64,000 bases of DNA from positions 128,001 through 192,000 of the forward strand of contig CAWJKV010000005.1 in assembly GCA_963843555.1 (NCBI GenBank). Direction: 5' to 3'. Both the position numbers and the translations under genes were made by a program. The DNA is from an uncultured Methanosarcinales archaeon. GTDB taxonomy: Archaea > Halobacteriota > Methanosarcinia > Methanotrichales > Methanotrichaceae. The notes under the pieces were generated by a model that saw only the letters and a program-made list of their open reading frames with translations, was not told where the DNA came from and made no database searches. Shown in pieces: positions 8,938-56,718 of this stretch (position 1 is its first letter; each line of letters begins with the position of its first letter).

Positions 8938-11900
8938 TTATGGCATATAGTTTTCGTAGATGTAGATATCTTTGTCCCCATTCCGATCATCGGTCCAGAC
9001 GATTCTTCCCGTCCTTATGCGCGGTTCAGTCTGGTTCCCGGCATCCGTGCAGATGGCTTTCTCACTTGCCACATTCTGGTCGTAGACATAAATGTCCCAG
9101 TTACCGTTTCTCTTATCCTGCCACACAATGACGCCGTTTTCGACATCGGGATTGGTCTGATCCGTCAGATCCTTGGTTATCTGTGTCTCCTTACTGGTTT
9201 TGAGGTCGTAGGCATAAATATCCCAGTTCCCGTTCCGGTTATCCTGCCAGACCACAGTGTTCCCATCTGTCGCCGCATTGGTCTGATCGTTGGCATCGCT
9301 CACCAGCATTACGGGTTTCTGGCCCTGCTTCCACAGCCAGATATCCCAGTTCCCTTTCTTATTATCCTGATAGACGACAAGATCTTTTCCGGCCCGCGGA
9401 TTAGTGCCGCTGGGCGGAGCTTCAGGACTGACCTCCTTTTCGAAAAGAGGTCTCACATAGACCATCCTGCCAAAGTAAGTATTTCTCAGATAGGCCAGAT
9501 AATCTGGACTGAGGGAGATCGATGTCGCGTTCTCCAGTCCAAAAACCAGCTCCGAGGAGTTGTCAATGGATATATCAAATGTTCTGATAGACCAGTAGTC
9601 CTCGATTCCATATTGGTTCTGGGGATTGCGGGCAACCCAACCGATGATACTTCCTGAGATATCCGGATTCATATCCTCATAGGGGCTTGCCGCTATGGGT
9701 AGCTCGATCTCCTGGTTCAGGCTGTAGACATAGATATCCGGGTTTCCGGTACGGTTATCCATCCAGGCCACATAGTATCCCACCTGGTCGTTGCCGCCAA
9801 CAACAGGTTGGCTCTGGTCGCCGGGCGCTTTGCATATAACGCTGGTTTGACCCGCCGTCACAGGTACCGATCTCGGCCTACCACTCTCGGTGTTGAGCCA
9901 GACCAGTTTCTTGTCCATGCTGGGCTTGACCTGCCCTGGTCCCGCCTGAACCAGCTCATCCTTCCAGTTGCTCAGGTCCAGCTTGCGGATGGAGGCATTT
10001 GTCCCTGCGTCATCAACATAGGCGATGTACTTGCTCGATACCACGGGGTTCGTCTGCTCTCCTGGGCGGGGATAGGTCTTACCCCACTTCTGATCCCAGA
10101 AGTAATAGGAGATATCTTTGGTCTTGCCATCCTCCCAGGCGATGGTGTTTCCAGAGATGTCGGGATAAAGCTGGTCTCCATCGCCCGTCAGTTTGGTCTC
10201 ACTTCCCAAATTCAGGTCTTTGACATAAACGTCAAAGTCTCCGTTTCTGTTGTCCTGCCAGACCACCAGGTCACCGCTGATGATGGGATACATCTGCTGG
10301 CCTGATCCTTTGTAGACGGGAACGGTCTCGCCCGTGGATAAATCTCGCATGTAGACATCCCAGTTGCCGCTGGAGTTGTCCTGCCAGACGACCCGATCGT
10401 TGGAGATGGACGGCCAGATTTGATCACCTTTTCCCGTGACAAGGGCCGATTCGACACCGGTAGCCAGGTTCTTCAAATAGATGTCCCCATCCCCATTTCT
10501 GTAGTCTGCGAATACTACTTTGTCTCCGGAGGCTTTGGGGTAGAGCTGATCATATTCTCCTCGAGAGATGGGCCTTTCCGCTCTTGTGGAGAAATCAAAG
10601 CCAAATATGTTCCAGTTGCCTCTCCGGTTGTCGCTCCATACTAGGAGGCTGCCATTGGTGTTGGGGAAGTCGGTATTGAGTAGCAGCAGGGGATCGGAGT
10701 TGATATACCTCATCTTGATCTGCGAATAGCCATTGCTATTGTCCATCCATACGATCTTGTTGTCGCTTATGATCTTGGAAGATAGGTAAGGCTTGACCTG
10801 ATCGGGATCTCCTTTGCCGTCATTGGGAGTCTGCTGATTGGGAAGCGTGGCCAATGGTACTTCCACCCTCTTCGCCAGATCGTAGAGATATATATCCGAA
10901 TCTCCCTGTCTTACATCCAGCCAGGCTAAATAGTCTCCATAAACCATTGGGTTGCCCTGGTTAGCAGGGTTAATTATTACGGCCCGTTCCGTTTTTGTGA
11001 CTAGGTCGTAAACATATATGTCCCAGTTCTCATTTCTGCCATCGGCCCAGACCACGGTATCGCCCCAAATCCAGGGTTGGGCCTGGCGAGCCGGGTTTGT
11101 GCAGATGGGAATCTCCTTTCCGGAGGTCAGGTTGTAGAGATAGACATCCCATTTATCCTCACCACTCCGAGAGTCAATCCAGACTATCTTGTCGTCGTTT
11201 ATTACCGGCGAGAGCTTCAGAGACTGTACAGTTGTGATCTGCCGTTCCTTTCCCGTAGCTATGTCGTAATTGTAGATCTGCTCTCCGCCCGAGCGTTCAT
11301 CAATCCAGATGATATTATTTCCGTCGATCATTCCGTAGCGATGGTCGGACGAATCGGCGGTAACCTGGGTAGTCTCTTTGCTCAATAGGTTGTAGAGGAA
11401 TATGTTGAGGTTGCCCTTGCTCTTATCCGTCCAGATCACATTGTCCCCGCTTATATCAGGGCTGCTGTGGTCAAAATCGCTATTGGTTATGCTCGTCTCC
11501 TCATTGGTGGCCGTATTGAATAAATAGACGTTGAAGTTGCCGTTTCTATTGTCTGTCCAGACGATATTCTCTCCAGAGATGGAGGGATTGGTGTGGTTGA
11601 AAGGCTCACTGGTTATGGATACATCTGCCAGGATCTCGAAGTCGTACATTTGAATGTTCGAATCGGTCTGTCCTTGCCTGTAATCCGTCCAGACGACGCC
11701 CCGGTCACTGATGGCCGGTTCCATCTTGATGCTGCCGGGAGCGAGACCAGAGTCCGTGCCGGTCGAAATGTCATAGAGATTGATCTCGGTGTGGTTGTTG
11801 AGATAGACGATGTACTTGCCGTAAATCCTGGGATCGGTCTGCACGCCTGGTTTGGAAAGCGTCGTAGTCTTCTTAGTTGTCAAATCAATAAAGGCAATAT

Positions 11901-12582
11901 CAGACTCCCCTGTACGATTATCGGCCCAGACTACGTTGTTTCCGTTCACAGAAGGAAAAGATTGATCATTGGGCCCTGTGGAGACGGGTGTTTCTTGGCC
12001 GGATGCGATATCATACAGGTAGATATCAAAGTCTCCCGTACGCTTGTCCATCCAGACTATTTTGTCTCCGCTGATCCGAGGCTCGATCTGCTCTCCCTTG
12101 GCTGAGGATAAGACCTGCTCTTTTTTGGTCGACATGTCCAGAAGATGAATCTGGTAGGTGCCTGCGCGGTCATCAGCCCAGACTACGCGATCCCCGCTGA
12201 TATCCGGTTGGGTCTGGTTTCCAGCGGCGGTTGTAACCGCGGACTCAGTCCGGTTGATGACATCGTACATGTAGATGTCTCCATTCCCGGAGCGCATGTC
12301 CAGCCAGACAATGCGCTCGCCTGATACGGCTGGATTGATCTGGAAGAAGGGATTGATGCATACCCATCTCTCCACTCCCGTCTCCAGATCGTACATGAAT
12401 ATGTCGTAGTTTCCGCTCCGGTTATCCGACCAGGCTACAATATGTCCATCTATGGATGGTTGCATCTGCTCGGAGCCCCCCACAATGGCTATGGGGCGCT
12501 CTTTTCCAAACTCCGCCCCGATGGCAGCGCTTGTATAGAGAAGTGCCGCCGTCATGATCAAAATCAAGATTGCCTTTTGCAT
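8938..12582 (-). CDS. Secreted cell-surface protein built of Methanosarcinales-type beta-propeller repeats
   Basis: Signal peptide then 28 ~40-aa repeats of 'P.I.G..IVW.D.R.G..DIY.YD'. Confidence 0.92.
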   Translation of the reverse strand: MQKAILILIMTAALLYTSAAIGAEFGKERPIAIVGGSEQMQPSIDGHIVAWSDNRSGNYDIFMYDLETGVERWVCINPFFQINPAVSGERIVWLDMRSGNGDIYMYDVINRTESAVTTAAGNQTQPDISGDRVVWADDRAGTYQIHLLDMSTKKEQVLSSAKGEQIEPRISGDKIVWMDKRTGDFDIYLYDIASGQETPVSTGPNDQSFPSVNGNNVVWADNRTGESDIAFIDLTTKKTTTLSKPGVQTDPRIYGKYIVYLNNHTEINLYDISTGTDSGLAPGSIKMEPAISDRGVVWTDYRQGQTDSNIQMYDFEILADVSITSEPFNHTNPSISGENIVWTDNRNGNFNVYLFNTATNEETSITNSDFDHSSPDISGDNVIWTDKSKGNLNIFLYNLLSKETTQVTADSSDHRYGMIDGNNIIWIDERSGGEQIYNYDIATGKERQITTVQSLKLSPVINDDKIVWIDSRSGEDKWDVYLYNLTSGKEIPICTNPARQAQPWIWGDTVVWADGRNENWDIYVYDLVTKTERAVIINPANQGNPMVYGDYLAWLDVRQGDSDIYLYDLAKRVEVPLATLPNQQTPNDGKGDPDQVKPYLSSKIISDNKIVWMDNSNGYSQIKMRYINSDPLLLLNTDFPNTNGSLLVWSDNRRGNWNIFGFDFSTRAERPISRGEYDQLYPKASGDKVVFADYRNGDGDIYLKNLATGVESALVTGKGDQIWPSISNDRVVWQDNSSGNWDVYMRDLSTGETVPVYKGSGQQMYPIISGDLVVWQDNRNGDFDVYVKDLNLGSETKLTGDGDQLYPDISGNTIAWEDGKTKDISYYFWDQKWGKTYPRPGEQTNPVVSSKYIAYVDDAGTNASIRKLDLSNWKDELVQAGPGQVKPSMDKKLVWLNTESGRPRSVPVTAGQTSVICKAPGDQSQPVVGGNDQVGYYVAWMDNRTGNPDIYVYSLNQEIELPIAASPYEDMNPDISGSIIGWVARNPQNQYGIEDYWSIRTFDISIDNSSELVFGLENATSISLSPDYLAYLRNTYFGRMVYVRPLFEKEVSPEAPPSGTNPRAGKDLVVYQDNKKGNWDIWLWKQGQKPVMLVSDANDQTNAATDGNTVVWQDNRNGNWDIYAYDLKTSKETQITKDLTDQTNPDVENGVIVWQDKRNGNWDIYVYDQNVASEKAICTDAGNQTEPRIRTGRIVWTDDRNGDKDIYIYENYMP

Positions 12583-12748: not shown

Positions 12749-14561
12749 CTAACGGATCATGGTTCTTCCCAGAGTTACCAGGAAAAGGGCCAGGAGCAGC
12801 CAGCCCAAGATAGACTCTATTGTAGCCATGTAGCGGCAGGCGCCTACAGGATACCATTTCACCTGCGTCCTGGCTGTGAAGACCATGGCGCTGAAGTAGA
12901 GGTTGTCCAGGAAGGTGAGATTCTCCTGTGCGCCAAGGCTGGCGCCGGAGCCGTTCAACGGCTCCACCACAATTCCTTCTCCCTGCCAGAAAAGGAAAGC
13001 GAAAAGAAGGATCAAAAAGCAGCTCAAAAATATGGTGTACCTGGGGCGAACGCCGTAGCCGCAGGAGATCCAGGCCAGGCCGTCCAGGAGCTTGGACCAG
13101 TTTATCTTTGCCTCTCTATCGGCCCGAACGATTAAGGACTTGCTGGACTGGCTCATGCGCCGATAATGGTAGTAGCAGTCGTCTGCGTCCTCAAACCATT
13201 CCAGATTCTTGAAATTCTTGGTCAGAGCGAGATATGCTGCGCCGTCGTAGATCAGGTGATCAGATAGATTCGGCCATCTGGCCTCCAGACGGATGAATTC
13301 GGCGTTATGCAGAGATATCTGTCCGGTGAAACTGGCATCGGAGAGGCGCATAACTTGAATTTTTGCACTTTCAAGATCCAGATCCTTTCGAAATTTTGCG
13401 CCTGTGAAGTATGCCGTCTTTGTAAACTGTGTTCCCTGGAAGGATGCCTCTTCCTGGAAGTCTGCGGAGTCAAAGTGAGCTTTTGCCTGGAACTCTGATG
13501 AGGAAAAGGATGCGTCCCTGCAAAACCGGACATGTCTGAAGTCCGAATCCATTGAAAAGACAGCATCCTGGAATTGGGCCGCTCCACCAAAGATTGCCTC
13601 CTCAAAGATCACGACCCCCTGGAACCTGGCACGGGAGAAGTTGACACTTCCCTCGAAATGAGATCCCATAAAGCTGGATTCGCCAAAGACGGCTTCTCTG
13701 AACTGAACATCACCTTTCAGGACGGCATCAATGAAGTTGACATTATTCAGTTGAACACGAAAGAAGTTGGCATTTCCTGATATGGATGATCCAAGAAATA
13801 TGACATTTCCCTGAAACCTGGCAAATTCCATATTAAGCTCTTCTCCGAAGCTTGCGCCCCGAAAATCGGCGTTTCCGGAAAGTACGGCGCTCTGAAAGCT
13901 GGCGTAACCCACGAATTTGGCTCCCTGGAAGTTGGCGTCATTGAGGAAGTCTGCCTTCCAGAAACTTGCCGCCCGGTCGAAAGTCGCCAGCCTGAAGTTG
14001 GCAGTTCCTGAGAACCTGGTCCCGGTGAAATCGGCATCTTCCCGGAAGCTCGCCTCACCGAAGTTGGTGCATAGCTCGCAAAAGCTGGCGGAGCCAAAGC
14101 TGGCCAGGCAATCGAAAACGGCATTGCCGAAGTTAGCGATAGCCGAAAAGGAGGCCCCCTGGAATCGGGCCTCGCGGGCAAATTTTGCATCTCTGAAAGT
14201 GGCATATCTCTTGAAGCCTGCGGCCTCGAATCTGGCTCCATTCTGGAAGGATGCTCCTTTGAAGCGCACCTCCTGGCCGAAGATCGAGCCGCAGAAGTCC
14301 AGAGGCTCCTGAAACCGGGCACTGGGCAAAGCTCACTTTGCCATGAAATTCGCAGTTCCTTATCTGGATCCGGGAGGAGACAACCGAGGCCGTCTGTGTC
14401 TGGCCGGGCGGGCGCTCGCAGTGAACGAGGGGCAGATCGAGTTCGGATATGTCGATGTCACCGACTATTGCCACATGATCAAAAATAACCGGATCACCAT
14501 TTTCGATCCGGTCCAGAATCTCGCGGGCTTCAATTACAGGAAGATGCGACTCTTCAGCTAT
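12749..14561 (-). CDS. Pentapeptide-repeat protein with C-terminal two-TM ion-channel-like domain (frameshift near 14330)
   Basis: Long 'A.F.gA.F' repeat region; C-terminal GYGVRP-TM-LYFS...-TM; N-terminal part (AEESHLPVIEAREILDRIENGDPVIFDHVAIVGDID) lies in the frame of ORF 14133..14474. Confidence 0.85.
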
Positions 14562-14680: not shown

Positions 14681-15902
14681 TTGAAGGATTATCTCACAAT
14701 GGATGACATCATACTCGATAACAAAAGGGTCCTGGTAAGAGTGGACTTCAACTCTCCCATGGACCCCAGCGGAAATATCCTGGATGATAAGCGCATCAAG
14801 AGCCATTTAGATACTTTGCGTGCTTTGGAGGACTGCCGGGTGGTCCTCATGGCGCATCAAAGCCGGGCCGGAAAGAAGGACTATACCACACTAGAGGCTC
14901 ATGCCCGCGTGGCGACGAGACTTTTGCGCCGCGATGTCGTCTATATTGACGACATCTTCGGATCTCACGCCCGGGAGGCTGTAAAGTCCCTGATGCCGGG
15001 AGAGGTCCTTCTCCTGGAGAATACCCGCTTTTATGCCGAAGAGAATATGAACCGCACGCCTGCGGATCATGCCAAGAGCCACATGGTGAAGAAGCTGGCA
15101 CCTTTATTCGATCTCTTCATAAACGATGCCTTTGCCGTTTCACATCGTTCTCACTGTTCCGTGGTCGGCTTCACCGAGGTGTTACCGAGCGTTGCCGGGA
15201 TTCTCATGGACAAAGAGATCACGGCGCTGGATAAGGGTTTGAAGGGGAATGAGCACCCAACGGTCTTCGCTCTGGGCGGCACGAAGGCAGACGATTCCAT
15301 TAAAGTCACTAAAAACGTTCTTGGTCGCGGCGGAGCCGATAAGATTCTGACCTCCGGGGTCGTTGCCACCGTCTTCCTGATGGCGGCAGGCATTGATGTT
15401 GGCGAAGCCAACCGCAAGTTCGTAGAGGATCAGGAGTATCTGGAGCAGATTCCCATTGCAGCAAAGCTGCTCAAGGATTATCCGGGCAAGATTGCCATGC
15501 CTGTCGATGTAGCCCTGAACAAAAATGGAGAGCGTGTCGAGGTCGCCGTGGATAAGATTCCCGCAGATCTGCCCATAGCGGACATTGGTCTTGAGACCAT
15601 CGTCAACTATTCCCGGGATTTGAAGGAAGCCAAGGTTACTGTTACTGAACGGGCCAACGGGGATATTCGAGCAGGAGAAGTTCCGGCTGGGCACGTCAGA
15701 GCTTCTAAAGGCAGCAGCAGAGTCGGGCTACTCCATTGCCGGCGGCGGGCATAGTGTAGCGGCCATCGAGCAGCTCGGCCTCGAGTCCCAGGTTCTCCCA
15801 TGTGAGCATGGGCGGAGGCGCGAGCATCACCTATCTCTCCGGCGAGCCATTGCCGGGCATTGAAGCCCTGAAGAAGGCCGCCATTCGCTGCGCAAGGCTT
15901 GA
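14681..15902 (+). CDS. pgk: Phosphoglycerate kinase (apparent frameshifts near 15640, 15790 and probably 15890)
   Basis: RVDFNSP, HQSR.G, LLENTRF, NDAF..SHR, LGG.K; the C-terminal LNGP.GIFE, AGGGHS, HVSMGGGA and G.PLPGI motifs appear in successive shifted frames. Confidence 0.93.
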
Positions 15903-18052: not shown

Positions 18053-18694
18053 CTAAGCACGGTAACCGATGCTGACTCGCCCGGACTGGCTATCCTTCTG
18101 CATGACGCTGCTTTTCGTTGCATCAATTACAGCGACGTTTCCGCCGGATGCGGTCCTTTCTTCCGCCATCTCTTTCAACAGGTTGCCCTTCGATCCTTCC
18201 GGGATGGCTGGCTCTTGCCACCAGGTGGTGGGATCGAATTCATTCTTTTTGTCGTCATCGAGCTTGGCATAGCCGGCGTCTACAATGATTCTGTTGACGG
18301 GCGGCCAGATAGGCCTGTATTCCGAATCCATCAGATAGACTACACAGATCAACTGGCTCCATTCATTCCGTCCGCTGGCGGTGCTGTTATCGATGTCGAT
18401 AAATACTGTCTTATTCTTCAGCAGGGAATTGGCATATTTCTTGGCAGCTTTCCCTTCCGGGGTTACCGTCGAGGGAGAGATGATATCGGCCAGCCTTATG
18501 CTGTCGACGTTGTTTGTCCTGGGGTCCGAAATAATGATTTCGATTCCCAGCGAGTCGCCGCTGATGACGCTTACGACGCGCCCTACTGCCTCTTCAGGAA
18601 CGCCCACCGCCACTGGAATAAATGCGGCTTGAATAAATAAAAATATTAATAATAGCGTACCAAATGATAATTCCCTAGACCACTTCATGTCCAC
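18053..18694 (-). CDS. Exported thermonuclease (SNase)-fold protein with degenerate active site
   Basis: Signal/TM segment, then VVSVISGDS, IRLADI.SP, G..AK.Y...LL..K.V.ID.D, VN..IV..GYA, NEFDP..WW. Confidence 0.85.
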   Translation of the reverse strand: MDMKWSRELSFGTLLLIFLFIQAAFIPVAVGVPEEAVGRVVSVISGDSLGIEIIISDPRTNNVDSIRLADIISPSTVTPEGKAAKKYANSLLKNKTVFIDIDNSTASGRNEWSQLICVVYLMDSEYRPIWPPVNRIIVDAGYAKLDDDKKNEFDPTTWWQEPAIPEGSKGNLLKEMAEERTASGGNVAVIDATKSSVMQKDSQSGRVSIGYRA

Positions 18695-18847: not shown

Positions 18848-19397
18848 TCAGGTATAGGCCAAACAGTACTTGCAGCTCGCCTGAAACGAACAGGAACTGC
18901 ATCTTCTCTTCTGATCGTGATCTCTCGTCGGGCATCCTGATCTCATGGATCTGCTTCATTTCTTTGACGACTCCAATCAGATCAGAGCGAAGAGGTTCAT
19001 CAAAAATTATTTTATTCTGTTTTCCGTCTGCGTATACGATAATCCCGTAGGGCACGGATTTGTGATAGGTCTCTTCAACGAGAAGACAGTATGCCGCCAG
19101 TTGCAGGACATGGTTTCTGTAGGGCTTGGCCGCCCGTCCGCTCTTGATCTCAATGGGAATCAAGCCACCGTATCTCTTATCGCTGATTATATAATCCGGC
19201 TTGCCGCTGATGCCCAATTTTTTGGAAAATAGAGCTTTTGCCGGGCGGTCCAGATCGGAGTAGATCACCCTTCCATGTGGAATCCCGTACTTCAGTCGAA
19301 TCGATTTTGCAGCACCCGATTCTCTATTGGAGAGAAAATGCGAGAATATTGCCAGAAGCAAGAGCGACAAAATCAGAAGCTCTGTCGTAAGAACCAC
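18848..19397 (-). CDS. cas4: Cas4-like PD-(D/E)xK nuclease, catalytic part with N-terminal TM anchor (frameshift near 18940)
   Basis: GISGKPDYI, IPIEIKSG, HVLQLAAY motifs; shifted frame gives the tail PTRDHDQKRRCSSCSFQASCKYCLAYT-TGA (18848) with C-x2-C-x5-C. Confidence 0.88.
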
Positions 19398-19645
19398 CCT
19401 ACGAGCAAAATCGCAAAGAGCGCTGAAGAGTACTCCAGGACGCGAAATGCCCTGGAAGCGCTATCCTTTTTCTGAAGGAGAGATAGCCTCTTGCCGGCTC
19501 CGATGTGCTCTCGAATTCCTCTCTCCAGGTAGGGAGATCTTGGTGATGCCCCCATTCTTTTCAGGTACCAGGAAACAGGGCAATACACGTATTGCGATAT
19601 CTCAGATGCTGCTATTACCTCGCTCTTGTTGGTACGCTTTGCCAT
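19373..19645 (-). CDS. Small membrane protein equivalent to the N-terminal part of Cas4 (first Fe-S cysteine)
   Basis: IAASEISQYVYCPVSWYL...LERG..EH equals the Cas4 N-terminal S-x-x-x-x-Y-x-x-CP...G...H motif, followed by a C-terminal TM helix; overlaps the downstream gene by 25 nt. Confidence 0.85.
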   Translation of the reverse strand: MAKRTNKSEVIAASEISQYVYCPVSWYLKRMGASPRSPYLERGIREHIGAGKRLSLLQKKDSASRAFRVLEYSSALFAILLVGWFLRQSF

Positions 19646-19740: not shown

Positions 19741-20745
19741 ATGCCGGACAAATCCTTAGGTCTAAAGGTTGAACGAATCTATGGCGAACAATTTCGCAAG
19801 GCCCTGGTGGAGATGAATTCCTTCGACCGCTCCCGCAAGATAAGATCGGACAAATCCCATATCCATCTGCCCATTCTGGAGATGGGCGACCAATCGAAAG
19901 CCAGGCTTCGCCAGATAGCAGAGTTTGAACTCCTGCAACTGGATTTTGAGCAGGAAGAGCACATACAGACCCTCGAGGAAATGCTGGGCTTTCGGCCCAG
20001 TTTTGAGGTGGTGGGCGACATTGCCATGGTGGAGGATAGCGAAGCGGATAAGGTGGCTCTTGCCCTCATGTCCACCAGCAAAAACATAAAAACCGTAATT
20101 GCTCCCATCTCCGACGTGGAAGGGGAGTTTCGCACCCGTCGCTTCAGGCATGTGGCGGGAGAGCCGGGCACAGTTACCACCCATAAGGAGCACGGCCTGC
20201 GCTACCGGGTAGACCTGGAGGGAGCCTATTTCACGCCCCGCCTGGGTACGGAGCGGCTCAGGATCGCCGGCCTCGTGCAATCCACCGATGTCGTGCTGGA
20301 TATGTTCGCAGGAGTCGGGCCGTTCGCGCTGCTTCTGGCCAGGAGATGCTCCCGCGTTATTGCCATGGATAAAAACCCCGTTGCGGTGAAGTTCCTGCGC
20401 GAGAACGCCCGCCTGAATAAGATCGAGAACATCGAGATCCTGGTGGGAGATGCGAGTGTCCTGGCCTTGCCCTACGAGAATACGGCCGACCATGTCATCA
20501 TGAACCTTCCCCATAGCGCTTCTCTCTTCCTCCTTCCGGCAATTAGGGCAGCGAAGCCCGGAGGCGCAGTCCATTACTACTGCATAGCATCCGAAGATGA
20601 TCTCTACAAAGACGAGGCTCTGATAAAGGATGCAGCATTAAAGACGGGGGCCTCGGTCGAGGTTCTTTACAGGGGCATAGTGAGAAGCTATGCGCCTCAC
20701 AGACACAACGTGGTCTTAGACTTCGTGGTTCATAAATCCCAATAA
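19741..20745 (+). CDS. trm5: tRNA (guanine37-N1)-methyltransferase, Trm5/Met-10 family
   Basis: SFEVVGDIA, GEFRTR, HKE.G, YF.PRL.TER.R, DMFAGVGPF, IMNLP motifs. Confidence 0.9.
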   Translation: MPDKSLGLKVERIYGEQFRKALVEMNSFDRSRKIRSDKSHIHLPILEMGDQSKARLRQIAEFELLQLDFEQEEHIQTLEEMLGFRPSFEVVGDIAMVEDSEADKVALALMSTSKNIKTVIAPISDVEGEFRTRRFRHVAGEPGTVTTHKEHGLRYRVDLEGAYFTPRLGTERLRIAGLVQSTDVVLDMFAGVGPFALLLARRCSRVIAMDKNPVAVKFLRENARLNKIENIEILVGDASVLALPYENTADHVIMNLPHSASLFLLPAIRAAKPGGAVHYYCIASEDDLYKDEALIKDAALKTGASVEVLYRGIVRSYAPHRHNVVLDFVVHKSQ

Positions 20746-20896: not shown

Positions 20897-21631
20897 TTGA
20901 TTGTGGCAGTACAAAGCATCGAGTTTCCCCGGGCGAAGTCAGGTATACCCGGATACGACGAATTGGTCGATGGCGGTTTTCACAGGGGGACAGTCAATAC
21001 CATAACCGGGTCATCGGGTACGGGCAAGACCGTGTTTGCCAGCCAGTTCATCCATTCTGGAATCAAAGCGGGAGAGAAGGGAATGATCATCACTCCTTCA
21101 GAAAGCGCAGAATACCTGAAGCGTGAGATGATGTCCTCCTTTGGCTGGGACTTCTCGACTCTCGAAAAAGAGGGAAAATTGAGCATAGTCGATGTCACCG
21201 ACCCCGTGCTCCGCCTGCAGAAGAGCATCGATATAGATCCCGTGGAATTTCTCATAAACTTCAGAAAGCTTGTGGAGAGGAAGCTGGAGGAGGCAAAACC
21301 CGCCAGGCTCTTCATAGACGACCTGACTGCCTTTTTCATGGCTGTGGAGGCACCTTTCAAGATCCGGTCACTGACGGATGACCTCTTCGGCACCATTCGC
21401 GCCAGCGGCGTCACCTCGGTCATCACCATCGGAACTGCTTTCGGCACCAACCAGTTCCTGGAGTACGGCGCCGACTCCGCCACAGTGCTCAATCGGGAGC
21501 GCATAGGCAACACACTCATCAGATCGATATACATTATGAAGATGCGCGGCTCAAAGATCGCCAACAGCATAAGGGTTCTGGACATCTCCGACGAGGGACT
21601 GGCGGTCTCAGCGCTCTCCCCCTATCCCTGA
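20897..21631 (+). CDS. Single-domain KaiC-like (RAD55/RecA superfamily) ATPase
   Basis: SGIPG.DELV.GG, Walker A GSSGTGKT, Walker B LFIDD, C-terminal KMRGS. Confidence 0.92.
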   Translation: MIVAVQSIEFPRAKSGIPGYDELVDGGFHRGTVNTITGSSGTGKTVFASQFIHSGIKAGEKGMIITPSESAEYLKREMMSSFGWDFSTLEKEGKLSIVDVTDPVLRLQKSIDIDPVEFLINFRKLVERKLEEAKPARLFIDDLTAFFMAVEAPFKIRSLTDDLFGTIRASGVTSVITIGTAFGTNQFLEYGADSATVLNRERIGNTLIRSIYIMKMRGSKIANSIRVLDISDEGLAVSALSPYP

Positions 21632-21638
21632 GGTATGC

Positions 21639-23423
21639 ATGATCGAAAGATGGATCATTCTGGCCGCCGAGGAAGCGGGTCCAGCCTCGAACAAGATGGG
21701 CGGCATCTGGAATGTGGTGGACGCAGAGGCCATAATGCTGGCACGGCTTGTGGCAAAGGGAGATATTGAAAGCGGCCTTCGCATACTGGTGCTGGGGCCG
21801 AACTATCCCGCCTCGGGCTCGGACTGGAACACAGGCAAGAACCGGGTAACAGATCTCTCGGGATTCGATAAGCTGGATATGGGGCAGACGCTTGCGGCAA
21901 CACTTGCCACATTGAATCGGCTGGGCATTGAGACCGTCACCGGCCAGAGAACCGAACAGGGCGTTTCCATCGGCTATGTACTCTTCAATACCAACTACTA
22001 TCAGTCTCGCATGGTGCGCTGGATGAATCAGGAGATGACCCAGAACAATGCCATCAAAACGGAGGCTTTTGATCTGTTGGGCCTCGATTCCATGAGCTTT
22101 GAGAAGGAGCAGTATGGATGGGAGTATAATCACTACCTGAACCTCTCCCATGCCATATCCGAGCTGGTGCGAAACCTTGCCCTGGCCTCAGAAGAGAAGA
22201 CGCAGAAGTACAAAGACAAGGCCGTCTCGGAGTTTGCCAAGTCGGTGATGCCCAAAGTGAGAGTCTCTTTGCACTGCCATGAGTTTGGAGTATTTTATGC
22301 CGCAGCCAGGCTGGAGAAGATGGGCATCCCAGTAAAAACGGTCTGCACTCTTCACGCCACAGTTCCCGGTCGGACTGCTGGTTATAAGTCACTGGAAAAG
22401 ATCTCCCAAAACGACTCCGCAATGGAGCCCGGCACACCCCTGGGCTTTGCCACCCTGGAGGGATTGGCCCGCTATGCCGATGCCGTCACATTCGTAGGCG
22501 ACTCGACTATGAAAGAGGCCATGCTCTTCCACCATTTGAAGGGCATTGTCATCAGAAATGGGATCGATGTCGAAGCCGAGAAGATCGACTGGGACAAGAA
22601 AGAGCGTTGCCGGGCCAAAATTCAGGATTTCCTCTCCGAGAAAATCTATAAGCAGTGCGATGGCAATTGCGTGAGTGGGGAAAATATAGTTCCTATTTTC
22701 ACCATATCTCGCATAGAGATCGAGAATAAGGGATATCCCCAGCTTCTTGATGCCCTGGTCTTTCAGGATCACCTGCTCAAAAACAGATTAACCGGTCAGC
22801 GTCGTGCCGAGGACACCAAGGTGGTATGCTTCCTGATTGCGTCTCACGGACCTAAAGCTAAAGAGAAGCTTCCAGAGGGATTTCCCGTCAATCTGCCGGC
22901 AGAGGTTCTGGTGGGCGATGAGATCCGTCTGCAGAACATGATAAAGAATCGCGGTCTGGAAGCGAGGGAGCTGGTGTCAGGCAAGAGGATGGTCGTGGCG
23001 GTGCTTTATCCTCAGTGGTTGGGGCCGGATGATGGAGGCCTGGGCATGGGAGTCGATGAGATCATGGCCGGATGCGTTGCCGGGATATTCCCATCACAAT
23101 ATGAGCCCTTTCTTCTCACGGCACTGGAAGCAGGAAAGGAGGGCACACCCAATATCGTCAGCCGGGCGGCTGGCTACAGCGATGCCCTGAAGAAAGTCGA
23201 ACGCCGCGTGCCCGGCATGGGGGGCGTTGTGATTGTAGACAACATTGAGGCCCAACCTCAGGAGACTGTTCTGGACTATGCCCTGGCACTGGACTACTTC
23301 ACCTGGACCTATCTCGAGGATGAGGTCAAATACCGGCTGCTCTGCGAGGAGTCCTTCTCCCTGGCCAGGCAGTTCAGCTGGAAGGAGCCGGTTCTGGAAT
23401 ATTATAAAAATCTTGTAGTTTGA
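21639..23423 (+). CDS. GT3-like glycogen synthase
   Basis: NKMGGIWNV, HCHEF, TLHATVPGR, SRIE.ENKG, FPSQYEP correspond to GT3 motifs (NKVGGIYTV, HFHEW, T.HAT..GR, GRYE..NKG, FPSYYEP). Confidence 0.8.
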   Translation: MIERWIILAAEEAGPASNKMGGIWNVVDAEAIMLARLVAKGDIESGLRILVLGPNYPASGSDWNTGKNRVTDLSGFDKLDMGQTLAATLATLNRLGIETVTGQRTEQGVSIGYVLFNTNYYQSRMVRWMNQEMTQNNAIKTEAFDLLGLDSMSFEKEQYGWEYNHYLNLSHAISELVRNLALASEEKTQKYKDKAVSEFAKSVMPKVRVSLHCHEFGVFYAAARLEKMGIPVKTVCTLHATVPGRTAGYKSLEKISQNDSAMEPGTPLGFATLEGLARYADAVTFVGDSTMKEAMLFHHLKGIVIRNGIDVEAEKIDWDKKERCRAKIQDFLSEKIYKQCDGNCVSGENIVPIFTISRIEIENKGYPQLLDALVFQDHLLKNRLTGQRRAEDTKVVCFLIASHGPKAKEKLPEGFPVNLPAEVLVGDEIRLQNMIKNRGLEARELVSGKRMVVAVLYPQWLGPDDGGLGMGVDEIMAGCVAGIFPSQYEPFLLTALEAGKEGTPNIVSRAAGYSDALKKVERRVPGMGGVVIVDNIEAQPQETVLDYALALDYFTWTYLEDEVKYRLLCEESFSLARQFSWKEPVLEYYKNLVV

Positions 23424-23442
23424 ATCCAATTTCAGGAGCGAC

Positions 23443-24657
23443 TTGCCGATGCGAATCGCGTATTTGAGCACCGAGTACCCACCGCTAATCTATGGCGGCC
23501 TGGGTGTCTATGTGGATAATATATCCCGCAATCTATCAAGCCTTGGCCAGAAGATCTCTGTCTTCTCCTGGGGGCTTGAGAGCCTTCCCAGGCATGAGAA
23601 TTTAGGAGGTGTGGAGGTATTCAGGGAGCCGCCGCTGCCCATGCAGGACGGCATGGAGGTCTTTCTTTCGCCCGAGACTCTGGCCTGGGGAGAGGGCCTC
23701 AAGTATCTGCTTGAGCTCCTCAGCTATAACCAGATGTCTCTGGGCGATATCTTCCGGGAAGGGCCTTTTCAGCTGGTCGTCGCCCATGACTGGCTCGGTC
23801 TGCCCGGGGGGATGGCCGCCAAGAGAAAAGGCATTCCCTTGATCTATCATGTGCACGGCCTGGAAAGCGGACGCTCAGAGAGGCCCAATCCCCAGCTGGT
23901 AGCCCTGGAGCGCAGAGGCGCTGCTGTTGCGGACCTGGTCATTACCGTATCTCTGGCCATGAAAAGAGAGCTGGCCTCGCTGGGAGTTCCGGCGGAAAAA
24001 GTCAGGGTATGCTACCACGGCGTAGATACCGAGTTCTTCGATCCAAACCGTGTCGATCCCAATGCACTGGAAGCTCTGCGAGAGAAGTACGGCTATGCAA
24101 AGGATGATATCATCGTCCTCTTCCTGGGCCGGCTGGAGCCGGTCAAAGGCGTCATAGAGCTATTTTCTGCTATGCCTCAAGTCCTGGCAGAGCACGAGCG
24201 GGTGAAGCTGCTGGTAGTGGGCAAGGGCAGCCTGGAGGAATGGGCCAGGGGAGAGTCGCAACGACAGAGCAACATATCGCTGGTAACAGACTTTCTCAAT
24301 GACGGGGAGAAGAGGCTCTACTACGCTCTGGCGGATTTGTGCGTTTTTCCCAGCCTCTACGAACCCTTTGGCATTGTAGCTCTGGAGGCGGCAGCCATGG
24401 GCAAGCCCTCCGTGGTAGGCGCCGCCGGAACCAGCGGCCTGGGGGAGATTGTACTGAACCCTGCCGCAGAAAAACCCACCGGTGTTCATGTTAACGCTCG
24501 CGATCCAGAGGATCTGGCCTGGGGCATCAACCTGGCTCTGAAAGATCTGATGAGGCTACGGATTTGGGGGAAGAATGCCCGAGAGCGAGCGAGTTCGGAG
24601 TTCAGCTGGCAGAAAGCGGCCGTGAGGACCCTGGAGATTTATGAAGAAGTGGTTTGA
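23443..24657 (+). CDS. GT4 family glycosyltransferase
   Basis: EYPP..YGGLG, AHDW, FLGRL..VKG, FPSLYEPFGIVALEA. Confidence 0.92.
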   Translation: MPMRIAYLSTEYPPLIYGGLGVYVDNISRNLSSLGQKISVFSWGLESLPRHENLGGVEVFREPPLPMQDGMEVFLSPETLAWGEGLKYLLELLSYNQMSLGDIFREGPFQLVVAHDWLGLPGGMAAKRKGIPLIYHVHGLESGRSERPNPQLVALERRGAAVADLVITVSLAMKRELASLGVPAEKVRVCYHGVDTEFFDPNRVDPNALEALREKYGYAKDDIIVLFLGRLEPVKGVIELFSAMPQVLAEHERVKLLVVGKGSLEEWARGESQRQSNISLVTDFLNDGEKRLYYALADLCVFPSLYEPFGIVALEAAAMGKPSVVGAAGTSGLGEIVLNPAAEKPTGVHVNARDPEDLAWGINLALKDLMRLRIWGKNARERASSEFSWQKAAVRTLEIYEEVV

Positions 24658-24678
24658 GTCTTATGAGGAGACGACGGA

Positions 24679-25671
24679 ATGCCGGAGCTGAGACGCCACT
24701 ATTTCCTGGAAGAGTACTGCATCATCGCTAGCGAACGCAGTAAGAGGCCGTCCGACTTCCTGGTGGCAAAAGCCGTCCCGGGAGACGAAAAAACGTGTCC
24801 CTTCTGTCCGGGAAACGAGGACATGACTCCGCCAAATGTTGCAGTCTACACGGATAGAGGGGTTCTTTCTCTGGGTCCAAAAAGAGTCCCGGGCTGGCAG
24901 TTGAGAGTCTTTCCTAATGTATTCGCTGCCATGGTCCCAGGCCCCGCGCCTGCAACTGCCGAATGGATAGCTCTGCCGGGACATGGCTACCATGAGGTGA
25001 TTGTGGACTCACCTCTGCATAGGGAAAACCCGGCGGACTTCAGTCAGGAACACATGGAGCGGCTTCTCCTGGTTTATAGGGATCGCTATGTCCACTACAG
25101 CCACCTTGACGAGGTGAAATACATATCCATCTTCAAAAATTGGGGCAAGGAGGCAGGTGCATCTTTATCCCACAGCCACTCTCAGCTCATCACCCTTCCC
25201 ATACTGCCACCCCTGATGAAAAGGGAGCAGGACGCCATCTCCCAGGCATCTTTCTGCCCGTTCTGCAATATCGTGGAAAGGGAGAGAACATCGTGCCGCC
25301 TCATCGCCGAGGACGACCATTGGGAACTGATTGCTCCCTTCTATTCTCCTGCACCTTATGAGACCTGGATTCTCCCTAAGAGGCATCTTTGTAACCTTTC
25401 GGAGATGACGGCGCTGGAATGCAAGAATCTGGCCGCTCTGTTGAAAAGGATAATGGGAAGCTTGCGGTCCCTCTTAGACGATCCGCCATACAATCTCATG
25501 ATCTTCCAGCAATCTTCTGATTATCACCTCAACGTCAGAATTCAGCCTGCTGTGGCTAAGATTGCAGGATTTGAGAGAAGCACAGGCATATACATCAACC
25601 CCGTTCCGCCCGAGCGAGCGGCTGCAGAGCTTTCGGCGGAGATACACGCCGCCGAAAAGTTAATCAATTAA
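24679..25671 (+). CDS. galT: GalT-like hexose-1-phosphate nucleotidyltransferase (HIT superfamily)
   Basis: MPELR, R..RP, CPFCPGNE, RVFPN.F, G.HEVI, FKNWG..AGASLSHSHSQ. Confidence 0.88.
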   Translation: MPELRRHYFLEEYCIIASERSKRPSDFLVAKAVPGDEKTCPFCPGNEDMTPPNVAVYTDRGVLSLGPKRVPGWQLRVFPNVFAAMVPGPAPATAEWIALPGHGYHEVIVDSPLHRENPADFSQEHMERLLLVYRDRYVHYSHLDEVKYISIFKNWGKEAGASLSHSHSQLITLPILPPLMKREQDAISQASFCPFCNIVERERTSCRLIAEDDHWELIAPFYSPAPYETWILPKRHLCNLSEMTALECKNLAALLKRIMGSLRSLLDDPPYNLMIFQQSSDYHLNVRIQPAVAKIAGFERSTGIYINPVPPERAAAELSAEIHAAEKLIN

Positions 25672-25773
25672 CAATCCTCATAGTATCACAATTTGATATT
25701 TCGAGCTTCGTGACTTTCATAAAACGTGGAGTAAGATGTACAGAAAAAGCGCTAAAATAGATACGGTGAAGAG

Positions 25774-26937
25774 ATGAGAATTGCAATGCTCTCCTGGGAG
25801 AGCTTATACTCAATAAAAGTAGGTGGCGTTGCCCCCCACGTCTCAGAGATCTCCGAAGCTCTGGCCAGGAGAGGCCATGAAGTTCATGTTTTTACTCGCC
25901 GAGGCGATTATGAGACCTATGATAAGATCAATGGTGTACACTACCAGAGAGCGGATGTAGATAGCTCTGGAAACATCCTGGATCAGATGGATCGAATGTG
26001 TGATGCTCTCTATGATCGTTTCTGTGCGGTGCAAGAGCTCTTCGGCAACTTCGATATCGTGCATGGTCACGATTGGCATCCTGTGCTGGCTTTGGTCCGC
26101 ATAAAGAATGACTTTGGACTGCCCTTTCTCATAACTATGCACAGCACAGAATGGGGGAGGAATGGAAACAACTTTGGATACGGCATATCCCAGGAGATCT
26201 CCCGCCGAGAGTGGCTGGGCTGCTATGAGGCCTCTAAGGTGATTGTGACAACGATACGCATGCAGGATGAGTTGATGTGGATCTACAATCTGCCTCAAGA
26301 CAAGATCTCGATCATACCCAACGGCATCGTGCTGGGGAAGATGAAGCGGGAATTGGATGCAGGCCGGGTCAAGGAGAAGTACGGCATTCACCCCCTGGCG
26401 CCCATGGTACTCTTCTGCGGCAGGATGAGCATCCAGAAAGGGCCCGACCTCCTGGTGGAAGCAGTCCCTCATATCTTGTGGAACAGATCCGGTGTCTGTT
26501 TTGTCTTCATTGGAGAGGGAGACATAAAGGCGGAGTGCGAGCGCAGAGCTCGCGAGCTGGGCGTGGGGAATTCCTGCCGGTTCCTTGGCTATACTTCCAG
26601 CGCCGAGAAACAGGAGCTCATGAACGCATGCGACCTCATGTGCGTTCCCAGCCGCAACGAACCTTTCGGGGTAGTCGTCCTGGAGGCCTGGGATGCCTGC
26701 AAACCCGTGGTAGGGACGGAAGCTGTGAGCATCATCAAGAACTTCGAAGATGGACTGCTGGCCTATGTGCAAGCGGAGTCCATCGCCTGGTGCATTAACC
26801 GGCTGATTTCCAACCCCGAAGAGATGAAGAAGCTGGCCCGGGCCGGATACAACAGGATCAATAGCGAATTCAGCTGGGATCGAATCGCCAAGAATACGGA
26901 AGACGCCATGGAGCAGGCCATCGATCAGAGCCGCTAG
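25774..26937 (+). CDS. GT4 family glycosyltransferase
   Basis: SWESLYSIKVGG, HGHDWH, HSTEWGR, GR...QKGPD, PSRNEPFG.V.LEAW. Confidence 0.92.
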   Translation: MRIAMLSWESLYSIKVGGVAPHVSEISEALARRGHEVHVFTRRGDYETYDKINGVHYQRADVDSSGNILDQMDRMCDALYDRFCAVQELFGNFDIVHGHDWHPVLALVRIKNDFGLPFLITMHSTEWGRNGNNFGYGISQEISRREWLGCYEASKVIVTTIRMQDELMWIYNLPQDKISIIPNGIVLGKMKRELDAGRVKEKYGIHPLAPMVLFCGRMSIQKGPDLLVEAVPHILWNRSGVCFVFIGEGDIKAECERRARELGVGNSCRFLGYTSSAEKQELMNACDLMCVPSRNEPFGVVVLEAWDACKPVVGTEAVSIIKNFEDGLLAYVQAESIAWCINRLISNPEEMKKLARAGYNRINSEFSWDRIAKNTEDAMEQAIDQSR

Positions 26938-53361: not shown

Positions 53362-54117
53362 ATGCGAGGTAGAGGGTACTCAGAAGTGGAGTTGATACAT
53401 CATATAAAAAAAATGTCTCTGATTATTTCAATAACGCTAATTAGTTCCATCGTATGTGCTCATGGGGCCACTTTAATTGTGGGGGATAGCCCAAAAGGTT
53501 ACGGAAGCATTCAAGAGGCGATAAATTCGGCTAGAGTAGGGGATGAAATATTGGTTAATCCCGGAACTTATTACGAAAATATCGTTGTAGATAAGCGCAT
53601 AAATCTTATTGGGTTGAAAAATCCAGTTATTGATGCAGGGGGCGATTATTTCAAAGGTCCGGGTGTAACCATACTCGCTGATGGTGTGCTGATGGAAGGG
53701 TTTACCATTAGGAATTCCACAAATACCGCGGGAGATCCGCTATCCGGTGCTGGGGTATTGGTAAGATCAAACAACAATACTATCAAAGGAAACATATTAG
53801 AAGATAACTATCGCAGTGGAATCAAAGTTCTGGGTGGTAGTAATAACTCGATTACCAATAATAATGTTGATAGTAATTTTGAAGGCATATTGGTGTCAAA
53901 TTCGCATCGTAATAAAATATCAAGTAACCGCATAAATAGCAACAATGATGCGGGAATTTTTATTACAGGTTCTTCAGAACAGAATTTGGTAAAATATAAC
54001 ATTATAGAAAATAACTCTCGTGGTATATTATTGATCGATGCAGGCGTTAATGATATTACTAAAAATGAGGTTTTTAAGAATAATGTGAAAAATTTCGAGA
54101 CATTCTATACCAAATAA
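53362..54117 (+). CDS. Exported right-handed parallel beta-helix (NosD/CASH) protein
   Basis: Y.SIQEAIN.A..GD.I.V.PGTYYEN, GFTI.N, repeated GI.l..S.NN.I..N; start may be ATG 53413. Confidence 0.9.
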   Translation: MRGRGYSEVELIHHIKKMSLIISITLISSIVCAHGATLIVGDSPKGYGSIQEAINSARVGDEILVNPGTYYENIVVDKRINLIGLKNPVIDAGGDYFKGPGVTILADGVLMEGFTIRNSTNTAGDPLSGAGVLVRSNNNTIKGNILEDNYRSGIKVLGGSNNSITNNNVDSNFEGILVSNSHRNKISSNRINSNNDAGIFITGSSEQNLVKYNIIENNSRGILLIDAGVNDITKNEVFKNNVKNFETFYTK

Positions 54118-54318
54118 TATCGGCGCCCCTTCTGTCAAACATTTGTAGTTATTTTATTTGATTAATTTATGAGAATTTTAAAATTAAAGGCAAAAGTACA
54201 TCCTAAAGATGAGAGGAAGGATTTGGTTAGTAATTCCTCAATTTGATTCAGGATTAGTAGATAATCTTAAATCTAGGAAAGAATATTCAATTGTTCGGAA
54301 TGGAGAGATGTATTGGAT

Positions 54319-55904
54319 ATGAAAAGGAAGGGACTATATCAAATAACATCAGGGATAATTTTTCTGGTGCTCATTTTAGCTTCTATACCAGCTCTTCTTT
54401 CTCCAATTGTATTTGCATCCATGGCACAACAAGAAAAATCCGTATCAAAGGAAGCTGATCCTGCAGAAATAATCATAGAGCCAAAACAGTAATAACTGGG
54501 CATCTATGAATAGATATTTTGAATTTGAGCGGAAATTTGGGGTGGAATCATCCGAAACATTACAAATTGAGTCGAGCTGGATGGATGTTGGTTTGCCTGA
54601 AGATCCATATAAATCTTACGGGTCCTCTACCAGCAAATTCCAATAACCAACAATCTAAACAGACCATAATAAAGCAGGGTTTTATAGGATTATATCATCC
54701 TTTCAAAGGAAAAGTTTATGCAGGAACAGGCATTTATGAGGATGAAGATCTTTATCAAGCTTACCCTTTTGGGGTGAATGGCATATTGAATGCACCGAGT
54801 TATGGTGAGTACCTGTTTAAAGAAAATATCGAAAAACATTGTCTGGAATTTGATTCTAACCTGGTTTATGGAATAATTCTACCACCTTCCGAAAGGGGGG
54901 TCGCTAATAATCCCAAAGATACCAAGCTATGGGAACCAGATTCTTCACCAGGAATGATCCAAGCAGCAGCGAGGTTCTCCAAGCTATCTTCAATTTTTCC
55001 CCAAATAAGAGGGGTGATAATCGATGATTTTTGGGCTAACTATTACGGAAATGCCATTACATTGGAAGATATGAAAAATATAAAAGGTGCTCTGTCGGGG
55101 AAAAAAATGAAGCCCGATGGTACCGTGGATCTCGAATCACCCTCCACTACACCTGATTTGCAGATGTTCATTGTGACATATGGAGGCGAGTTGAGGGGTA
55201 CTCCCGATAAAAATATAATAGATATGATCGATGGTGTTAACTTCTGGATTTATGACCAGGAGGATTCCTATAACAACTTCGACCGATATTTAAGTGCCCT
55301 AGAGGCCCATTATCCAGATAAAGAACTGATCACAGGCGTGTATATCCATAATGGCGATTATGGAGATATGTCCAATCAATCCATATCCTATTTGATAGAT
55401 AAGGGCATACAGCTTTATGAAAAAGGTTTATCATCCGGGATACTTTTATTTGCTGGACATTGGCTAGTTAAGAACTATATATCACAAGAGAGAAGTCAGA
55501 AGATTGGGCTTTCTGATATTTTTTATAGCAAATATTATCCTTATCTCGGTGAGATTAATTGTCAAGTGGTGGATGATGAAACTTCGCAGCCGCTACAAGG
55601 AGTTAAAATCAAGATCTGCCACAATATGGCTAGAAAGATTACTGCCGCGGGAAAGACTACCAATGAACAGGGGATGTTCCGCTTTTCAGGATATGCAGGT
55701 AGATCCGGAGGCGTTTCATATAGCTTCACAGCCGAGAAAGACGGATATGATCCTTACAATGGATCGTTCACCATGGAGGCAAATAAAGCCATAAATCTGC
55801 CTCCAGTAAATCTCAAACTATTAGAACTGAATATTAAAGGTTCTGTTGAATCTCGTGGTAGTGGTCTTGAGAAAACGATATCAAACGACTACATAATATT
55901 TTGA
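54319..55904 (+). CDS. Exported protein, putative TIM-barrel glycoside-hydrolase-like domain plus carboxypeptidase-regulatory-like domain (frameshifts near 54480 and 54610)
   Basis: Signal peptide ORF at 54319-54492; main ORF has GVIIDDF, IDGVNFW and C-terminal V.D..T..PL.GV.I...TTN..G.F...YSFTAEKDGY. Confidence 0.65.
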
Positions 55905-55987
55905 TGCCAAGATCACTGGACTAACCAGGTTTGGGCTTCCGATATAATATACATTCAGCTGAAGCATGAGCATATCCATCAGGGGTG

Positions 55988-56128
55988 CAGTCCATACCAT
56001 ATGATAACGAATTTTGCAGGCAAAGTGACTCGCTTTCTTAACTTCAAAATCATCGACAGGCAATTATGCCACCTTGATTATGTCCGTTTCCTGACCAACC
56101 CAACCGCAGCAAGCAACGGGTATTCGAA
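55988..56128 (-). mobile_element. IS200/IS605-family remnant: element end plus 5' fragment of tnpA
   Basis: ...EVKKASHFACKIRYHMVW resembles the N-terminus of Y1 transposases (H......YH.VW); upstream ttcgaatacccgttgcttgctgcgg...ggtcag resembles a degenerate subterminal hairpin. Confidence 0.7.
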
Positions 56129-56229
56129 TTAAATAAACATCAAATACGTCTAATGAGGAAAAGGATGATACCCCTTTGTGGTGCGATCTGATGTTTTAGC
56201 GGAGATATTCAATGAAAACGCTAATTATC

Positions 56230-56510
56230 TATGACTCGGTCGCGCCTCGTCCCCGCGGTCTCAGCATATTTTGCCTGGAAACGTTCTGCTTCTACTGCAT
56301 TCTTTGGACCTTAATATCAATCCGTCATCATTTTATCGATTTGCTCTTCATCAAATCAAAGCCGATTCACTGAGAACGGGAAAACTCCTGCAAAAGTTCC
56401 AAATCGGCATCCAATAAGGTCGAAAGCGCCAATTCAACAATATTCGGATCGGTGGTCGGTGGCACCTCCAACCTATCCATTCACTTCTGCAGCGCCTTAA
56501 TCATTGTCAT
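56230..56510 (-). pseudogene. Decayed gene fragment with in-frame stops
   Basis: IKALQK*MDRLEVPPTTDPNIVELALSTLLDADLELLQEFSRSQ* then, shifted, DEEQIDKMMTD*; protein-like but interrupted. Confidence 0.4.
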
Positions 56511-56718
56511 CCTTGCCCTCCAACTTTCGAGGGCGCTTCTCAATGGCCCAACCTTTTCAATTTCACAAGAGCGGAGCCAACATTCAGAAAGCTGTATGAT
56601 TGTATCCACTTCAATATTCATGTCCAAAAAAGGGGCAACAAAATGTGCCTTCTTAGATATTTAATTGGAAGCTAAATATACAAAAAAAGGAATGAGGTGA
56701 GATAATTCCCCCTCATTC

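Follow-up and report, generated by a model that had tools for sequence, protein, structure and literature searches.

Two overlapping genes, here named S and L, appear to encode two chains that together form a solo nuclease of the Cas4 family, which would sit at the cytoplasmic face of the membrane and act on incoming DNA ends, a reading to which we assign a probability of roughly 55%. The genes lie in a 64,000-nucleotide stretch of archaeal DNA, the window analysed here (C5:128001-192000 of an 82%-complete genome, G000), which its named homologues assign to the Methanothrix-like methanogens. That the two chains rebuild one Cas4 is drawn from the conserved split, the existence of fused forms, the near-perfect co-occurrence of S and L and the genomes in which the two genes are unlinked.

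Cas4 motifs divided between two overlapping genes

Cas4 proteins bind a [4Fe-4S] cluster through one N-terminal and three C-terminal cysteines, and solo Cas4 genes exist. Gene S (19645-19373, minus strand, overlapping gene L) encodes the 90-aa small subunit. Its translation, read from the ORF starting MAKR, contains the motif ASEISQYVYC with Cys22 (19582-19580, minus strand), the first Cas4 Fe-S ligand, and then GIREH with His47 (19507-19505, minus strand), a GxxxH metal ligand by alignment that was overlooked in the preliminary description. A long stalk helix leads into a C-terminal membrane anchor at approximately residues 66-87, which is of moderate hydrophobicity only (highest 19-residue Kyte-Doolittle mean 1.52, from residue 69). 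Both the ORF and its hydropathy thus confirmed that S is a separate 90-aa protein with the Cas4 N-terminal segment, the first cysteine and a terminal transmembrane (TM) helix. Modelled alone with AlphaFold, S gave a helix spanning residues 38-89 and a pTM of 0.42, a low-information fold. S matched positions 2-44 of TIGR00372 weakly (E 0.007) and aligned with the N-terminus of a fused relative at 99.9% probability, and a search of PDB sequences with the S profile returned chance antibody and coiled-coil matches only. The GxxxH of the family aligns with His94 of Pcal_0546 (4r5q) in a low-scoring stretch, the residue numbering being our own offset; in the available text of PMC4176176, His94 is a proposed fourth metal ligand, equivalent to His62 of SSO0001. 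S would contribute an active-site histidine as well as a cysteine, so the catalytic centre and the cluster would both be shared between the chains.

Gene L (19397/19388-18848, minus strand), of which the GTG start at 19397 lies 25 nt inside S, encodes the large catalytic subunit of ~180 aa. Its N-terminus is a hydrophobic helix (19-residue Kyte-Doolittle mean 2.42) followed by basic residues, and the PD-(D/E)xK and QxxxY motifs of Cas4 are all present in L, on the minus strand, as GKPD (residues 65-68, Asp at 19196), EIK (residues 83-85, Glu at 19151) and QLAAY (residues 99-103, at 19103). L scored 26.8 bits against PF01930 (E 6e-6, cut-off 22.7) and 65 bits against TIGR00372, exactly on the cut-off of 65. 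The three C-terminal Fe-S ligands, C-x2-C-x5-C (18901-18872, minus strand), follow in the frame entered after an extra base, and the true stop of L (18850-18848) is in this cysteine frame. The ORFs accordingly agree with the earlier account of L as a protein with a TM start and the PD, ExK and QxxxY motifs, its cysteines lying in another frame. The four Cas4 cysteines are complete only when the genes are summed, Cys22 coming from S and C-x2-C-x5-C from L.

The extra base that frameshifts L (18950-18952, minus strand; misplaced to ~18940 in the preliminary description) is private to the assembly. It is missing in all three close loci and, in answer to the read check proposed earlier, in one contig from each of two public sequencing runs covering the site; the relatives compared at this base are only ~82-96% identical to the window. 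The cysteine tail is in frame in all 13 related loci covering it and evolves under a dN/dS of ~0.16-0.28 when read in the cysteine frame. Frameshifts affect 11 of the 83 gene places tested in the assembly (two of them perhaps one gene counted twice), and the phosphoglycerate kinase gene 3 kb away (14681-15900, plus strand) has two, near 15680 and 15790. Because the extra base is private, the assembly indel-rich and the cysteine tail still selected, the base is very likely an assembly consensus error. The other explanation, that the window copy is a recent pseudogene in which the base is real and L has lost three cysteines, would fit the limited identity of the relatives lacking it and the indels also found in loci L057 and L088, but is made improbable by the broken genes nearby and elsewhere, which point to assembly errors, and by the constraint on the tail.

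Distribution and co-occurrence of S and L

A GTDB scan yielded at least 589 confirmed matches, and the best-scoring 80 were analysed, with a bias towards the Methanothrix group (41 of 80). Among these best 80 of at least 589 matches, S and L are split and adjacent at 71 loci, fused at three (carrying 2, 4 and 0 membrane helices), represented by L without an adjacent S at four and cut by a contig edge at two. The question of whether homologues are always two genes thus receives a qualified answer, the split form prevailing and the fused and unlinked loci being exceptions; of 13 related loci examined, 12 are split and one is fused. The same split at 71 of the best 80 loci is a recurrence far above chance and rules out a sequencing error at this point, and the conserved junction led us to reject the earlier alternative of a single polypeptide interrupted by an indel at 19373-19397. 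By record title, the carriers belong to Methanotrichales, Methanosarcinales, Methanofollis, Methanocellaceae, Thermoplasmatota, Dehalococcoidia, Chloroflexia, Anaerolineae and Syntrophobacterales.

Among the split loci of the same best 80 of at least 589 matches, S invariably has the cysteine, GxxxH and a TM helix preceded by more basic residues than follow it (71/71), and L a TM helix, basic residues after it and QxxxY (70/70 scored), with ExK in 66 and the three cysteines in 67 of the 70 scored. The TM helices on which the earlier idea of two anchored chains depended are therefore present throughout these split loci. The two genes also occur together, as that idea demanded: S and L are both found in 16 of 41 relatives, one L being a contig-edge fragment, and neither in the other 25. 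Full-length L was found in 24 of 81 Chloroflexota genomes, and the S part was recovered for 23 of these 24, directly in 21 (three of these matches being weak, although adjacent), in one as a divergent neighbour and in one fused to L, with a contig end accounting for the last; the 57 Chloroflexota genomes without L gave no credible S, only one TM-only chance match. As kin genomes are not independent, no statistic is attached to these co-occurrence counts. In Chloroflexota genomes with a lone L, S was located on another contig in four of four tested, and in two further genomes an unrelated gene sits between S and L, from which it follows that a single polypeptide is not required.

Carriage is patchy, at 14 of 24 genus relatives, none of 13 genomes in the third family sampled and 24 of 81 Chloroflexota, which indicates that the pair is dispensable, and most carriers have a single copy. 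Both genes are under purifying selection, with a median dN/dS of 0.23 (S) and 0.18 (L). The identities of S and L correlate (0.79, 85 pairs), as expected from shared descent, and this is not taken as evidence of pairing. In a Chloroflexota subgroup (L111-L113, L123 and L125), S is longer, with an acidic insert separating the cysteine motif from the stalk, and in one member it is fused to L. Two divergent S/L pairs (L070 and L066) occur in one Thermoplasmatota genome, one with an ATG and the other with an ATA start, and genome G095 likewise has two pairs.

The S/L junction and the start of L

At the junction (19373-19399, minus strand), L is read in the -1 frame relative to S, as it is in 70 of the 71 split loci among the best 80 of at least 589 matches. 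A Shine-Dalgarno-like GGGTGG (19399-19394, minus strand) is followed after 5 nt by ACG at 19388, the main start candidate of L in the window, with GTG at 19397, 9 nt upstream, as the alternative. The position matching this ACG in the 37 closest of these best 80 loci is ATG in 29, ACG in seven and GTT in one, and a GAGGTG/GGGGTG/GGGTGG-like motif lies ~5 nt before the probable start. In the Thermoplasmatota loci (L060-L099), the start codon is ATA in 21 of 25, overlapping the S stop (ATAG, ATAA), and ATG in the other four; an in-frame stop 9-12 nt upstream excludes an earlier start in eight of the 21 ATA loci. As controls, ATA was found after 4 of 98 other such Shine-Dalgarno-like motifs and at the beginning of none of 19 candidate neighbour ORFs. 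Gene callers are misled by the conserved ATA and ACG starts and mis-start L, and L proteins with an ATA start in Thermoplasmatota have been given false N-terminal extensions.

Termination-reinitiation occurs in archaea, and L is probably translated in this way downstream of S, in many loci from a weak start. Heteromeric complexes are enriched among short gene overlaps, according to the available text of PMC10666635. A promoter and terminator scan of the window gave counts in the shuffled range, using a bacterial promoter model on an archaeal host.

Programmed recoding, in which a ribosomal slip (-1, or +2 at the S stop) would yield one fused hairpin protein and the separate ORFs would be an annotation effect, could draw on the near-constant -1 frame of L, on the occurrence of fused S-L forms and on the eight loci where the L frame opens only 9-12 nt ahead of the S stop. 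In Thermoplasmata, moreover, the Shine-Dalgarno-like motif lies one codon before the last S codon, which we take to be the geometry of prfB, and this last codon is NTA in 20 of the 21 ATA loci. No slippery heptamer is conserved at the junction, however, and ATG, GTG or TTG replace ATA at the same position in other lineages, while Chloroflexota have S and L on different contigs or with a gene between them; recoding is accordingly judged very improbable.

Fused relatives, predicted fold and phylogeny

In fused relatives, 0, 2, 4 or 8 membrane helices are found at the point where the S/L split falls, and the alignment of S places the split inside the membrane hairpin of these proteins. The top 120 of 1380 homologues of a fused form comprise 98 L-type proteins with an anchor, 12 fused proteins with anchors, five full-length proteins without anchors and five L-type proteins without a detected anchor. 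A representative search gave 316 proteins at E <=1e-30, the best 150 of which were examined and add fused forms with 4 and 8 helices.

The Cas4/RecB-like fold was tested on P0041, a natural fused homologue, rather than on the S-L pair. The predicted fold of P0041 (pLDDT 88.9) has helices at residues 39-84 and 88-119, and its best structural match is Cas4 7mi4 (Z 20.6, rmsd 2.9, 185 aligned), with 8d3l also scoring high (Z 19.3). Its fold neighbours include Exo5, Dna2, AdnA and MGME1, the staple nucleases AddB, AdnA, Dna2 and Exo5 being matched at Z 10-13.5. A PDB search with P0054 returned 4r5q as the sole match (E 0.02).

A tree of the catalytic core was built from 53 of 165 rows, hand-picked after a FastTree result, and its bootstrap did not converge (0.971); rows called L from protein ids are assumed to be split, their DNA being unchecked. 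Placement of the fused proteins in one clade was rejected (AU p 3e-80, with 21 fused proteins among the 53 chosen rows). Two-helix fusions adjoin split forms in two places at 100/99 support, multi-helix forms group with some two-helix forms (97/94), and the forms without an anchor make up a small, supported group inside the family that has kept the post-helix linker. The deep order of the tree is unresolved, and no ancestral state is claimed. The repeated switching between split and fused forms with 0 to 8 helices provides a clear natural example of how a domain splits and fuses within a membrane insert.

A predicted two-chain enzyme

The positive-inside rule is well established, and by this rule the basic residues before the S helix and after the L helix place both soluble parts in the cytoplasm. 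S would thus be tail-anchored with its N-terminus inside, and L would have the reverse anchor with its C-terminus inside. The membrane helices and cytoplasmic extensions of the two chains would pair as an antiparallel hairpin and stalk, like those of the fused model. In the assembled enzyme, L would supply the Asp, the Glu-x-Lys, the QxxxY and three cysteines, and S the fourth cysteine and the metal-binding histidine; with the ligands divided in this manner, the Fe-S staple and the Mg/Mn site would be complete only in the heterodimer. We hold the predicted topology, assembly and catalysis, taken jointly, with good confidence on comparative grounds. Termination-reinitiation from the weak ATA or ACG start would limit the amount of free L. 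L might nevertheless cut without S, since the Fe-S cluster is dispensable for the activity of several Cas4 proteins, namely Pcal_0546, SSO1391 and the M. mazei solo-Cas4 (available text of PMC4176176 and PMC12501428).

Genomic context and possible role

Neither Cas1 nor Cas2 turned up in the 82%-complete genome, which extends the earlier observation, upheld here, that the window holds no array, cas1 or cas2; the window has no CRISPR-like repeat family, and Rfam gave three tRNAs only. A crude genome-wide repeat scan flagged one 69-nt-period repeat on contig C7 and nothing else. The recurring neighbours tabulated for 84 and for 32 loci include no cas gene, and on these grounds a CRISPR link was rejected; Cas1 is encoded elsewhere in the genome of four of five near-complete carriers, G020 being the exception. 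PADLOC returned Cas4-type models and weaker PD-(D/E)XK models (DruK and one PDC-S01) and no dedicated system. A second, distant Cas4-like gene in the same genome (G000:C15:48323-48643, open frame of 239 aa) is perhaps an ordinary methanogen solo-Cas4.

The recurring-neighbour survey found no neighbour common to all lineages, the neighbours being lineage-specific housekeeping genes (trm5, an RLI-like ATPase, a recN-like gene). The divergent upstream neighbour in the window is the tRNA methyltransferase gene trm5 (19741-20745, plus strand; 32 loci of the Methanothrix group). Downstream and co-oriented lies a gene for an exported SNase-fold protein (18053-18694, minus strand; 28 loci, all of the Methanothrix group), the catalytic motifs of which are degenerate when judged against what we take to be the SNase active site; the protein is possibly a non-catalytic nucleic-acid binder. 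It is strongly conserved in the Methanothrix group, and a second such gene lies on contig C14. An apparent neighbour cluster at 11 Chloroflexota loci was discarded as mostly the antisense shadow of L.

Elsewhere in the window, a glycogen cluster (20897-26937, plus strand) contains a KaiC-like ATPase, then genes resembling glycogen synthase, two glycosyltransferases and GalT. On the minus strand, 8938-12582 encodes an exported protein of 1214 aa built from 42-residue repeats, and 12749-14329 a protein with pentapeptide repeats and a membrane part at its C-terminus; an 18-nt tandem repeat at 960-1126 codes for a Tyr-rich stretch. The GC content at 54000-64000 is 38-45%, compared with ~52% elsewhere, which may mark a foreign island.

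By analogy with the nucleases SNIPE and ACE1, we tentatively propose that the S-L enzyme could act as a constitutive gatekeeper, an exo/endonuclease that would trim or destroy DNA ends arriving at the membrane, whether of viral, conjugative or environmental DNA, with the tether keeping it off the chromosome. In the preliminary description, a two-chain Cas4 was suggested to serve incoming-DNA processing or defence; the two tethered chains are well backed by comparison of the predicted proteins, whereas the role draws no support from context, the neighbourhood being one of housekeeping genes and no defence island, and ComEC being found in none of 41 related genomes. Low dN/dS and stable synteny are, furthermore, untypical of arms-race genes and count against a defence role.

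The main rival to the gatekeeper role is membrane-side repair, in which the same heterodimer would process ends or flaps of the cell's DNA at the membrane during repair, segregation or division, in the manner of Exo5, MGME1 and AddB. Such a housekeeping function, which we regard as doubtful, would suit the mostly single copy, the synteny that is stable within lineages, a dN/dS near 0.2 and the fold neighbours Exo5, Dna2, AdnA and MGME1. It would also suit the position of S/L, which lies upstream of a recN-like gene at five Chloroflexota loci and a Hef-like helicase gene at three loci (labels read from sequence), as well as the lack of any S/L match in 50,697 phage and 72,556 plasmid records, viral contigs giving only three weak and partial matches. 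The patchy carriage described above speaks against it, and no repair partner is conserved across lineages. A mobile-element origin was rejected on the phage and plasmid result together with the housekeeping neighbours.

DNA uptake for recombination or food would give the same heterodimer the task of resecting DNA delivered by an importer, with the SNase-fold neighbour of Methanothrix as DNA receptor. The membrane tether and the presence of this degenerate neighbour in 28 loci are compatible with such a task, but the neighbour is limited to the Methanothrix group, ComEC is found in none of the 41 related methanogen genomes, and DprA-family matches, all short and weak and none full-length, occur in 2 of 16 carriers compared with 11 of 25 non-carriers. 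A ComEC/competence link was accordingly rejected for the methanogen relatives, and an uptake role appears quite unlikely.

A more far-reaching version of the gatekeeper proposal, which we consider rather unlikely as a whole, would make S/L a widespread archaeal and bacterial gatekeeper whose staple and metal site form only when the anchored chains meet. Assembly rationed by reinitiation would then act as a safety catch, the two-piece DNA tunnel would open and close on crossing DNA, and the pair would be an archaeal counterpart of SNIPE derived from a CRISPR-related fold.

Comparison with known systems

The Cas4 proteins of CRISPR adaptation (type I-C, 8D3L; type I-G Cas4-Cas1, 7MI4) are the best structural matches of fused P0041. 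These proteins are defined by a place beside or in fusion with cas1/cas2 and an array, whereas S/L was found with neither Cas1, Cas2 nor an array and has a membrane hairpin or a split inside the domain. AddB, AdnA, Dna2 and Exo5 have the same fold and the 1+3 cysteine iron staple; unlike S/L, they are single chains, mostly helicase-linked, and are not integral membrane proteins. We know of no precedent for two integral membrane proteins that share an iron-staple cluster and a nuclease metal site.

SNIPE, a membrane-tethered cytoplasmic nuclease that cuts phage DNA on entry according to the available text of PMC13190303, resembles the S-L enzyme in being membrane-anchored, with its catalytic domain on a stalk in the cytoplasm, and serves as the model for targeting entering DNA. 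As described there, it is a single chain with GIY-YIG and DUF4041 domains, no Fe-S cluster and proven defence activity, unrelated to S/L in sequence and fold, and the term Cas4 does not occur in that text. In place of the combination of TM helix, DUF4041 and GIY-YIG that marks SNIPE, S/L has a nuclease of the PD-(D/E)xK Cas4 type. The P0041 model also matches ACE1 (9IAB) at Z 10.5. Unlike S/L, ACE1 is soluble, single-chained and encoded with Argonaute, and no Argonaute neighbour recurs beside S/L. ACE1 is said to be an Argonaute-associated Cas4-family nuclease that acts on invading DNA outside CRISPR.

No description of a split, membrane-anchored Cas4 was found in the open-access articles searched. 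The available parts of PMC4158269 and PMC13621843 do not describe the S/L family, and the words 'transmembrane' and 'split' are absent from the available main text of PMC5704561, although the Chloroflexi solo-Cas4 branch presented there may well include L. The two-piece design, unconnected to CRISPR, thus appears to be undescribed. In annotation pipelines L is called 'CRISPR-associated Cas4' and S either 'hypothetical' or Cas4, so that many genomes carry wrong annotations for the pair.

The closest known relatives are the solo-Cas4 proteins (COG1468, PF01930, TIGR00372; SSO0001, 4IC1; Pcal_0546, 4R5Q; M. mazei, available text of PMC12501428), with which S/L shares the Cas4 fold, PD-(D/E)xK, QxxxY, the 1+3 cysteines and the lack of cas1, cas2 or an array nearby. 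A four-cysteine module is reported for all members in the solo-Cas4 survey of Hudaiberdiev et al. 2017 (available text of PMC5704561), and solo-Cas4 genes are common in archaea, their roles being an acknowledged open question (PMC5704561 and PMC12501428, as available). Like these genes, S/L lies outside cas loci and mobile elements. In place of the single soluble polypeptide of Cas4, there are two ORFs with one TM helix each at 71 of the best 80 of at least 589 loci, that is, two genes, two membrane anchors and a cluster and metal site predicted to be shared between the chains. The S/L subfamily thereby provides a handle on solo-Cas4, with a membrane location, two chains and testable residues on each.
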